Below are positions 18,001-21,000 of a stretch of 64,000 nt of DNA, in pieces. The DNA is from Escherichia coli 042 (GTDB lineage: Bacteria > Pseudomonadota > Gammaproteobacteria > Enterobacterales > Enterobacteriaceae), in NCBI RefSeq assembly GCF_000027125.1, contig NC_017626.1, one strand, 5' to 3'. Each line of letters opens with the position of its first letter. Position 1 is the stretch's first letter. Made by a program: the position numbers.

Positions 18001-21000
18001 TGCTCAATTGAGAGTATTCCTCTCCCAAATGCCGATTACGCTTTCTTTGATGACGAAATGCCATTTACATTAACTGATGAACAGATCGAAAATATTTCTT
18101 TTTTAAACGCATATCACAAAGAAAAGAAAGGAAACAACGACATTGTTACATTTGATTTCATGAGCGCTGATCACCACCATAATTTTAGCACAACCATAGC
18201 TTTAACAAATGATAGCTTCCATATATCTTCAATAAACAACCATAACGCACAGGTTATAATCGATGAAAACATCCATTTACATCCCTATGAATTACCAGAA
18301 TCATCACAATGGTGTTATCAGTTAATAAAAAACATGATTTCTTTACATTGCAGATATAATAACAATTTCAAAATAAAAAAAACCTGTTGTTTTGATTTTA
18401 AAAATAAATCTTTTTGTAATGCCAGGTTGCAATATATAACGTTTATTGCATGTTTATTTTCACATGCAAACATGAAATATTCGACATTTCATGATGTTAA
18501 CCTTGATATGTGTGAGATAAAGAATTGCAATTTTGACAATTCAGAGATGAATTTCATTTCGTGCGTCGGGACAAATTTTAGCGGTTCTACATTTAACAAT
18601 GTAAAAACAACAACAGCGCAACTAATTAAGACACCAACAAAGTGGACGAATAATACTCTAAAATATTGGTTCTCCAGTTCTAATAAACGTAATATCATCT
18701 TCACACTTAATACAATATCTGATAGAGATATAAAATTAAAATGTATCAAGGATATATTACTGTCGTTGGTTGACCAAAAAGCCAATATTTATAGTGTAAG
18801 GCAAGAGCTTCTGGATTTTCTTAATAATGATTTATATAAAAATAATGGAGAGATTCTCTCTTATAAAGAATCAATAATGTTGTTTTGTGCTGTGTAGCCG
18901 AAAAATAGATGATTCAGATTAACTACCGCACTCTATGTTGTGTTTATATCCATGTCAGGTAACAGGTCATTTGTGAATCCTGACACCAGACTATGACTAT
19001 CGCCCAGGGATAATCCACAACCGCTGGAAGTAGTCTCATTTCTGCAGGATAAAACCGTAGAGTGCGATTGCGATGAATAATAAATACAGGCTTATTATTC
19101 CAGTCTTTTTTATTGCGTTGGTTGTTTCAAATGGCTCGGTTAGTAAAATGCACCATTCGCTCGGAAAACCCAACATGTTGCACTCTTATACGCCGTCTGG
19201 AAAAGGCGTAGGAGTGGTATAACCATTTAATCGCCTCCCAACGTCAACGCTTACACATCAGCGACACTGGTTTAATTAAAGCATACCAAATTTCTGATGA
19301 GTAAGCGTCTTTTCGTATAACCTCATTGTCACAGGAACGACTTGATCCGTTTATTTATTCGCCATGTTATTCAGTATCAATTTTCTTAATAGCTTTCACC
19401 ATATTTTCATTTTCTTTTAGCCAACTCCTGATATTTTTAACTACATCATTAAGTGTATTTTCTTGTTGATACTCTTTCTCCAATCTCTCTGTTTCATCCT
19501 TAAGATGTAGAATCTCTTTACTTATATTTGGTATTTTTCCATCTATCACCTTTATTATCCCCTTAATCTCATTAATTCTTTCCGCATCTTTTTTATCTTT
19601 ATTGTCTTTATTATTTAAGTAAAAATCCTCTTTAATCAATTGATCCTTAGTATCGACTAAATCATTTCTTTCGACAATAAGTTTGGCATATTTGTCTTTT
19701 ATATCGCCATAATTTTCCTTATTATAGTCATTATTTTTCTCAATTACCCACCGTAAATATTGCTCAATGCTAGAGAATAAATCGACTTTATCATCTACAT
19801 ATTTTGATACTTTCCTATAATCCCTGTAATTTATTTCCGTTCTTTCCTTAAATTCATTCAATGCTAAAAAAATCTTTTGCATTTTATCAAAATTATCATC
19901 TTCATGATTATTATTATAGTCTTTGTAAATATCCCGCAAATCATTAAAATTAAAGTGGAAGTGAAATCTTGCGCTGTTTGAAATAGCAGAACGATTTATT
20001 TTTAAATAGTTACGTTCATCGTAATGTCTTTGCCAAAAGAATCCAGTATAGAGGTTATGCATGAAATTCACTTTATCAATATCTATTTCATTGGCTATAT
20101 CTTTTTCTATATTGTACAAAACATTTAATATAATATACTGGATAGCTTCACCATTAAGTTGATATTTTTTGCCTTCATCATCAAGATTGAAGCTACCCAG
20201 CTTGACCAACAAAGATTGTAAATATAACAGTTCCTTTTCGTAATGACTTATCGCATCCTTGCCATAATTATTGAATTCTTCTACCCATGAATTAACTTCC
20301 ATTAAATTTTCCATGAAATCTGAAATGCCATTTTCAGCTATAGCTCCTTTCATGTCCATATAAACAGGAATTCTAATCTGGCTATTCGCAGCAAGATTAC
20401 CACTTAACCAAGTGGTTGAAGGATCAATAGCACAATCATCCAATTTAATTCCATTGATTGACTCGCCCAAACAGGTTTTAAGTAAATTGCAATTACTAAG
20501 TTTTAAATATTTATCTATATCATCAGCAACGTATTTATCATTTATATAACGACCGCCACTCATATTAGGGAAAAGATTAACGTAGATAAGGTTTGAAATG
20601 TGTTTATCCAGATTAAGTTTACCTCCATCCTTTTTGAAATATTCTCTGGGATCAAAATCCAGTAAATCTTTGCGAATTCCATTTCGTTTGCATGTCATAT
20701 CAGAGGAGCTAAAATCACACATATAAAAATGATTATCATATTTTAATTCACATCTATATTTGTGATAAAACGAAGTCCCTATGAAATCCATTTCAGCACC
20801 ATTAAGCTTTGCTATTTTACAACATAACAAACTGCTTGCAATAATACTTGCATTTTTACACACTCCATTCAGAAGAGTACATTCATATACAAATGATTGC
20901 ATAAACAGATATGCACCAACTGGCTTACCCACATTGGGATCTTGATTTACAGAGTATATTTTTGATGTATCTATGTTAAAATTTTTTATTTCACATCGAT

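Follow-up and report, generated by a model that had tools for sequence, protein, structure and literature searches.

The islet between yieH and phoU on the chromosome of Escherichia coli 042 raises the question of how two related genes for large type III secretion system (T3SS) effectors came to share one locus with pieces of core genes lodged between them. We analyzed a stretch of 64,000 nucleotides (nt) of contig NC_017626.1 (assembly GCF_000027125.1), hereinafter the window, in which this islet contains espY4 (gene A), a gene for a pentapeptide-repeat protein of 395 amino acids (aa) and an EspY5-like gene (gene C). The initial annotation noticed a degenerate second copy of the yieH 3' end next to the stop codon of C and read it as the trace of a unit, consisting of the yieH tail, a spacer, the large gene and its promoter, that was duplicated in tandem or acquired twice. 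We found that the stretch at 19121-19314 is a decayed piece of a second yieH gene which abuts a relic of another core gene, cbrC (yieJ). The best explanation, in which we have moderate confidence, appears to be that two long-diverged versions of one yieH-hairpin-effector locus were brought together by an illegitimate cbrC|yieH join.

The second yieH piece and its spacer

Comparison of the two units by blastn (14000-17800 against 18850-22350) aligned 14506-14569 with 19121-19184 (78.1% identity over 64 nt, E = 1e-9) and 14854-14941 with 19228-19314 (84.1% over 88 nt, E = 1e-21), and the gapped local alignment of 19100-19340 with yieH and its spacer scored 176.5, compared to 78.3 +/- 6.6 for 300 dinucleotide shuffles. 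The similarity to the yieH 3' region that was initially seen by eye thus exceeds chance by a wide margin. In a tblastn search with YieH, residues 106-128 matched 19121-19189 (18/23 identical, E = 2e-9); translated in the yieH frame, this block reads VVSNGSVSKMHHSLGKPNMLHSY, the corresponding YieH residues being VVSNGPVSKMQHSLGKLNMLHYF. Among the loci of other species, the piece gave a match to yieH in more than 50.

The relic lacks codons 1-105 and, as the initial annotation noted, carries an internal deletion, 243 nt of yieH (14575-14817) being replaced by 2 nt (a deletion of ~241 bp), after which only the degenerate last 12 codons and the stop follow. The description of the relic as the last ~60 bp of yieH is correct in that yieH coding sequence is present, but the conserved piece is internal (codons 106-128), and at the actual end of the gene only 22 of 39 nt (stop included) match. 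On the fixed diagonal of the spacer, these 22/39 matches have P = 5.6e-5; in a free local alignment, the 41-nt tail does not score above shuffles against yieH, so that the tail is recognized solely when the spacer match is extended without gaps. Because a MAFFT global alignment of both 3' regions misplaced the internal block, blastn and fixed-diagonal counts were used in its place.

Without its first 105 codons, and with the deletion and the degenerate tail, the relic cannot encode a protein. The same architecture with the same deletion is found in six divergent strains, and at least 80% of the region 18898-19366 is held by 1089 of the 5426 complete E. coli genomes, so the relic is not an assembly artefact. 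It varies by 4-16% between strains and is 74-84% identical, over 64 nt, to every sampled yieH allele, no closest donor lineage being apparent among these. Truncated, deleted and strain-variable, the relic has no plausible function and appears to be a non-functional recombination scar.

The DNA downstream of yieH was copied as well, as the 88-nt match shows, and the junction between the yieH stop and the spacer lies on the same diagonal in both copies, which points to a single original insertion beside yieH. The initial annotation took this spacer for the native flank of yieH, a view that did not hold: in E. coli genomes without the islet, including K-12 and B2, there is no match and similarity ends at the yieH stop, and the spacer was not found in 80 yieH loci of other Enterobacteriaceae. 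The spacer is, therefore, islet DNA. Its position relative to the two effector genes is the same, as originally stated, the homology being separated from the stop of A by 51 nt (14941 to 14993) and from that of C by 52 nt (19314 to 19367). Across these 51-52 nt, identity in a global alignment is 54%, which equals the mean for shuffled sequences (0.54 +/- 0.05), as against 84% in the adjoining hairpin.

Both spacers contain a stable hairpin (spacer 1 folds at -36 kcal/mol, z -5), the 15-nt arms of which are identical between the copies, or 18 nt counting the adjacent bases. The hairpin is followed by a short T-rich run, CTATTCC in copy 1 and CTTTTCG in copy 2. A terminator consensus scan called neither hairpin because the loop of 13-14 nt exceeds the consensus. 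No other non-coding element of the islet is strongly conserved, and the 63-nt hairpin was probably retained for a terminator-like role in the converging genes. Given that the spacer is an imperfect palindrome, like many small mobile repeats, one could envisage a REP-, ERIC- or MITE-like element that inserted independently behind each effector gene, or else a chance match, with no yieH relic involved. Such an element, however, would be expected at more places than the two, both at this locus, that were detected in islet-bearing genomes, or the three that are the maximum anywhere; no Rfam family matched the spacer in a scan of 14000-22400; the match includes in-frame yieH coding sequence as well as the yieH tail on the same diagonal; and chance is excluded by E values of 1e-9 to 1e-21 and by the shuffle controls. 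Copy number, the in-frame match and the shuffles together refute this explanation, to which we assign next to no probability.

The similarity between the units extends to the far side of the effector genes, where, as initially reported, the upstream regions are shared: a patch at 17487-17578 matches 21948-22038 (72.8% over 92 nt, E = 1e-8), and each lies at a corresponding distance from the start codon of its gene. Alongside the three collinear blocks, blastn detected weaker coding matches between A and C.

The cbrC relic and the unequal ends of the two units

Directly abutting the yieH relic is a second relic, at 18902-19120, which had been missed by the initial annotation. It consists of the upstream region and codons 1-49 of cbrC, and is 70.6% identical over 221 nt to Escherichia albertii (L011, 8867-9085) and 74.8% identical to K-12 cbrC; in a tblastn search, CbrC residues 14-49 matched it with 61% identity (E = 2e-9). 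The relic contains two in-frame stops. At 19120/19121, cbrC codon 49/50 is joined to yieH codon 106, so that the order from left to right is cbrC upstream region and codons 1-49, yieH codons 106-128, the ~241-bp deletion, yieH tail and stop, spacer 2, 52 nt and the C stop. The heptamer TGCGTYG is present at the breakpoint in either parent gene, in codons 48-50 of cbrC and in codons 105-107 of yieH; 4 extra nt are retained at the joint, which is not the clean product of a crossover within this microhomology. The G+C content of the middle intergenic region is 41%, against 31% for the islet, which fits embedded debris of core genes.

In the window, the 395-aa gene is followed immediately by the cbrC upstream region and codons 1-49, which implies that this gene, initially regarded as simply enclosed by the two units, is part of the left one and that this unit ends inside cbrC. 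The left unit thus comprises yieH, spacer 1, espY4, the 395-aa gene and the 5' part of cbrC. Right of C, in 21866-22292, neither a 395-aa gene nor similarity to CbrC was detected.

The far ends of the two units correspond to two chromosomal layouts. Among the 80 yieH loci of other Enterobacteriaceae, most genera have the ancestral layout, adeP-yieH followed, after ~100 bp, by phoU; cbrC lies between yieH and phoU in E. albertii, Escherichia sp. E1V33 and Pseudocitrobacter vendiensis. At the far end of the A unit are the cbrC upstream region and 5' end, as in the yieH-cbrC-phoU layout of E. albertii and E1V33, and the C unit ends in hairpin-REP-phoU (REP, repetitive extragenic palindromic element), as in Escherichia whittamii and L010. 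On the phoU side, blastn matched 22247-22292 to L010 and L008 (E. whittamii) and 22220-22292 to L011 (E. albertii); read by eye, 22222-22292 appears homologous to the DNA between yieH and phoU in E. whittamii (L008) and L010 and to that between cbrC and phoU in E. albertii L011, and the CCCGGT...ACCGGG hairpin that precedes the REP element is common to the window, E. whittamii and E. albertii. The REP element in the phoU 3' flank gave a weak Rfam match to naRNA4/CssrE (22220-22281, minus strand; 33 bits, under the gathering score). The different far flanks suggest that the A unit came from a yieH-cbrC chromosome and the C unit from a yieH-phoU chromosome.

The cbrC|yieH joint can also be read as the product of a tandem duplication within one genome, from yieH codon 106 to cbrC codon 49 (~4.6 kb including the 395-aa gene), after which the second 395-cbrC segment would have been deleted and the copies would have diverged in place. 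The units are indeed direct and collinear, and an end-to-start junction of cbrC to yieH is the novel joint to be expected. Under this scenario, however, an extra deletion is needed, with its right end within ~10 nt of the cbrC stop, restoring hairpin-REP-phoU, and the second 395-aa gene has left no trace.

Features of the locus and of related loci (positions in the window unless another locus is named)
Feature	Position	Strand	Basis or remark
adeP	12687-14024	minus	left neighbour of yieH
yieH, copy 1, intact, 6-phosphogluconate phosphatase	14191-14856	plus	open reading frame (ORF), RefSeq annotation
Spacer 1, islet DNA directly after the yieH stop; hairpin core 14873-14935	14857-14941		84% to spacer 2
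espY4 (paralog A), T3SS effector, 802 aa	14993-17401	minus	RefSeq annotation
Upstream patch of A	17487-17578		matches 21948-22038
395-aa pentapeptide-repeat gene, member of the left (A) unit	17710-18897	plus	cbrC upstream region directly after
cbrC (yieJ) relic: 71 bp of upstream region (18902-18972), codons 1-49 (18973-19119), one further base	18902-19120	plus	abuts the yieH relic
yieH relic, codons 106-128	19121-19189	plus	blastn, tblastn; starts at the illegitimate cbrC junction
yieH relic tail, degenerate last 12 codons and stop	19192-19230	plus	22/39 ungapped on the spacer diagonal
Spacer 2, 84-nt copy; hairpin core 19247-19308	19231-19314		blastn, fold
EspY5-like type III effector (paralog C), 832 aa	19367-21865	minus	counterpart of A
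Upstream patch of C	21948-22038		counterpart of 17487-17578
Native chromosomal flank, read by eye: CCCGGT...ACCGGG hairpin and REP element, up to the phoU stop	22222-22292		right islet boundary
phoU	22293-23018	minus	then pstBACS
Composite junction, L091 (JNE25-003)	9686-10297		in L091
Composite junction, L092 (PapM-32-1)	10760-11402		in L092
Composite junction, L088 (PCN033)	7001-7378		in L088

Age of the units and the history of the islet

Over 833 aa, the proteins encoded by A and C share 32% identity; their genes have a synonymous divergence (dS) of 1.5 for the N-terminal third, which is the best conserved, and of 2.1 for the C-terminal part, and a ratio of non-synonymous to synonymous divergence (dN/dS) of 0.3-0.4. 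With silent sites saturated, this ratio indicates an old divergence under ordinary constraint as opposed to the rapid adaptive divergence of a recent duplicate.

The yieH relic provides a second measure. For codons 106-128, the ancestor of six relic alleles was reconstructed by parsimony; compared with the intact copy, it has 16 changed sites over the 23 codons, 14 of them synonymous and 2 non-synonymous, a synonymous excess with P = 3e-8 under uniform mutation and P = 7e-4 if only GC-to-AT transitions are allowed. In this segment, intact yieH is a typical Escherichia allele, and its states at nearly all differing sites agree with E. whittamii, E1V33 and E. albertii, which places the changes on the branch of the relic. 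The distance between relic and intact copy (16-18/69 nt) is about that to Salmonella and Citrobacter yieH and to the K-12 allele. Judging from the ratio of 14 to 2, the relic must have belonged to an intact, selected yieH, and been part of a working gene, for most of the time since the units split; the change after truncation, that is, two fixed replacements and the strain-specific ones, would amount to only about 8%, roughly.

These observations bear directly on the tandem duplication, under which the truncated yieH would have been a pseudogene from the start, and yet its own branch carries 14 synonymous and 2 non-synonymous changes. Moreover, with a dS of ~1.5 between A and C, an unconstrained fragment of 69 nt should be unrecognizable, whereas the relic is 78% identical, and the sequence beside the hairpin shows random similarity only. 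The uneven similarity along the units would, by itself, allow a common age, the effector coding sequences being far more divergent than the flanks also between strains. Thus, the direct, collinear repeats agree with a tandem segmental duplication with a novel joint, but the clock-like sites and the signature of selection on the truncated yieH disagree with it, and we consider such a history very unlikely. Of the original two-unit proposal, the collinear arrangement (yieH piece, spacer, minus-strand effector gene, upstream patch) and a single original insertion stand, and a plain in-genome tandem duplication of ~2.7 kb is not supported; the data agree with the alternative that it offered, in which the unit was acquired on two occasions through recombination anchored in yieH.

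The synonymous bias and the saturation of A and C could be accounted for without two lineages if an ancient duplication, in a single genome and perhaps in an unsampled donor, included the complete yieH, with both yieH genes functional for a long time, the inner one later truncated and fused to cbrC, and the islet then spread, into or within E. coli, by homologous recombination in adeP/yieH and phoU. The absence of single-unit precursors, against 1109 genomes that carry the islet, and the uniform length of ~7.3 kb in each of the 58 sampled rows where the islet is essentially full-length are compatible with this possibility. However, two yieH genes were found at the locus in none of the 80 Enterobacteriaceae yieH loci, a housekeeping phosphatase gene kept for long as a tandem pair would be unusual and recombinationally unstable, and the differing flanks of the units, cbrC in one case and hairpin-REP-phoU in the other, are left unexplained. 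We regard this course of events as unlikely.

The joining of two long-diverged versions, which we moderately favour, would have proceeded as follows. In one ancestral insertion, the hairpin spacer and an EspY-type effector gene would have landed directly after the yieH stop, and the locus would then have evolved separately in two or more lineages, over a very long period, until silent sites were saturated, giving rise to version X (yieH-spacer-A-395-cbrC) and version Y (yieH-spacer-C-hairpin-REP-phoU). DNA of one version would have entered a chromosome carrying the other, where a non-homologous join connected cbrC codon 49/50 to yieH codon 106. The most economical route may be homology-facilitated illegitimate recombination with the left anchor in adeP/yieH, whereby the 5' part of the resident yieH was replaced: incoming adeP-yieH-spacer-A-395-cbrC', joined at codon 106 of the resident yieH-spacer-C-hairpin-REP-phoU, would produce the structure of the window in a single step. 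In the mirror alternative, the C unit would have been inserted into cbrC of an A-type chromosome. The truncated resident yieH would subsequently have lost 243 bp and decayed by roughly 8%.

Homology-facilitated illegitimate recombination, in which one homologous anchor is combined with one non-homologous join, is known from the transformation of Acinetobacter and pneumococcus. The islet would resemble its products in that the scarless end fits an anchor in adeP/yieH, the cbrC|yieH join is located at a shared short motif, and the resident gene would have been partly replaced; it differs in that the process is deduced here from the scar only and in the 4 extra nt, which do not correspond to a simple microhomology crossover.

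Several points weigh against this history. Neither yieH directly linked to C nor the 395-aa gene followed by an intact cbrC occurs in any of the 5426 complete E. coli genomes, and no single-unit precursor was found among 46 metagenome stretches retrieved in a hairpin scan or among the 80 yieH loci of other species. Versions X and Y would still differ by one more event, the loss or gain of 395-cbrC. The selection test covers 23 codons only and rests on a parsimony ancestor, and a synonymous bias would also be expected if the two-copy islet was assembled in an unsampled donor and moved to E. coli, with the intact yieH later converted. Finally, the relics of adeP and of the cbrC 3' end in the 16 genomes with islet and bgl together need extra steps under every model, and this composite may precede or follow the islet-only form.

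Searches for a one-copy precursor with the islet, yieH-spacer-C and an artificial combination of the 395-aa gene with intact cbrC as queries returned only two-copy islets or deletion forms. The one-copy ancestor that the initial annotation proposed to look for was met neither in E. coli nor in the other genomes searched; a single copy was found in L093 alone (Logan ERR3329175, reverse complement 7194-11013), which has the order adeP-yieH-spacer-C3 with a composite-type right end. Its effector, C3, which was located via the third protein cluster described below, is of a third, EspY5-like type (775 aa, 51% identical to C). Its spacer is chimeric: the left part resembles spacer 1, the right part resembles spacer 2, and the change from one to the other occurs within the right hairpin arm. 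Such a chimera is the expected product of recombination between the two hairpins and suggests that L093 is a secondary deletion of a two-copy islet; as a one-copy ancestor, it was rejected on account of this spacer. Apart from the two hairpins, the islet contains no long direct repeat; recombination between them can reduce it to one copy, as L093 appears to show.

The islet, its derivatives and the effector genes

The stretch is a member region of the known Z5211-Z5214 (EspY4/EspY5) islet between yieH and phoU: the position is the same, the G+C content is low (31.6%, against 52-55% in the neighbours), there are two related large ORFs and smaller ones, and mobility genes are absent. Sankar et al. 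(2009, PLoS Genet, PMC2646131) described Z5211-Z5214 of O157:H7 as an alternative to the bgl island beside phoU, a set of ORFans of ~30% G+C that replaces bgl and has no mobility genes and no tRNA, with Z5211 and Z5214 being '50% homologous'. The locus and gene set of the window agree with that description, and the islet is present in 1109 of the 5426 complete E. coli genomes (~20%), including O157:H7. In that paper, bgl and the Z island are alternatives, whereas 16 of the 5426 complete genomes hold both, so the two are not strictly alternative. The words 'remnant', 'truncat', 'relic', 'pseudogene' and 'duplicat' are absent from its text, and we found no earlier description of the yieH-relic scar, including in this primary paper on the locus, although the scar itself is of a familiar kind of recombination scar.

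In the composites of islet and bgl, the upstream region of C is followed by the hairpin, the first ~10 nt of the REP element, a 72-nt adeP fragment (residues 123 to 100), ~70 unassigned nt, cbrC codons 180-195 and then yieK-yieL-bglHBFG-phoU. These further illegitimate joints imply that the locus was rebuilt repeatedly from pieces of its own neighbourhood. Other derivatives include a metagenome form that lacks the segment corresponding to 17491-20602 of the window (L117, OLIF01000081.1, 4284-4366), another in which two internal deletions removed the yieH relic and spacer 2 (L108, SKET01003558.1), and strain GN25, where the C gene is cut by IS1 (L089, 7010-8318). In PCN033 (L090, NZ_CP006632.1, 36731-45680), an IS26/IS1-bounded resistance module (aac(3)-IId, TEM-1, ISCfr1) replaces yieE through effector C, and 153 bp of the C upstream region are left beside yieK.

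There are very deep allele classes of yieH within E. coli. The window allele is 80.0% identical to the K-12 allele over the whole gene (14105-14850 against L002 7630-8375) and 91-97% identical to B2-type alleles, and is near the E. whittamii and E. albertii alleles; the block of divergence from K-12 begins in the adeP-yieH intergenic region.

Gene A is annotated as espY4 and C as 'type III effector'; from its position beside espY4, C would be EspY5. As Tobe et al. (2006) are summarized in PMC6313403, the family EspY1-5 consists of T3SS effectors with a WEX5F/SopD-like N-terminus, and both A and C carry W-E-x5-F near residues 71-78. The present finding, a non-coding scar between the genes, is of a different nature from what is described for the EspY effectors. 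NCBIfam contains no family for A or C, a protein homologue search with C returned only near-identical E. coli proteins, and a profile search of 1.84 billion representative proteins detected just three full-length clusters, namely, the A type, the C type and a third type 51% identical to C. A RefSeq 'frameshifted hypothetical protein' (21718-21865) overlaps the 5' end of C, which in RefSeq starts at 21751; no stop interrupts the frame from 21886 onward, the alignment to A points to 21865 as the start, and the split looks like an annotation artefact.

The effector alleles are hypervariable. In comparisons of 14993-16200 and 19367-20600 of the window with L005, L086 and L087, the C-terminal half of C shows ~70% nt identity between the window and O157:H7 and O166:H15, and that of A is 85% identical between the window and HB42, whereas yieH, the spacers and the upstream regions that flank the effector genes are 96-100% identical between strains. 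This pattern makes allele replacement between conserved flanks likely. A more far-reaching conjecture, to which we give little credence, is that the conserved hairpin, beyond any terminator role, and the upstream patch would serve as fixed homology 'handles' around hypervariable EspY cassettes, forming a natural cassette-exchange site at which whole alleles of distant lineages would be swapped in, stacked (A and C) or deleted (L093), with the yieH relic as the sole surviving trace of an unsampled Escherichia-like lineage.

What the relic means for the effectors is that EspY4 and the EspY5-like protein are probably not recent in-genome paralogs but products of long-separated versions of one yieH-linked gene, which affects the reading of the EspY family tree and of its 'paralogs'. 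The advance is incremental, as this kind of relic is well understood and no new mechanism is involved, but it would provide a concrete history for a widespread effector islet that lacks mobility genes.

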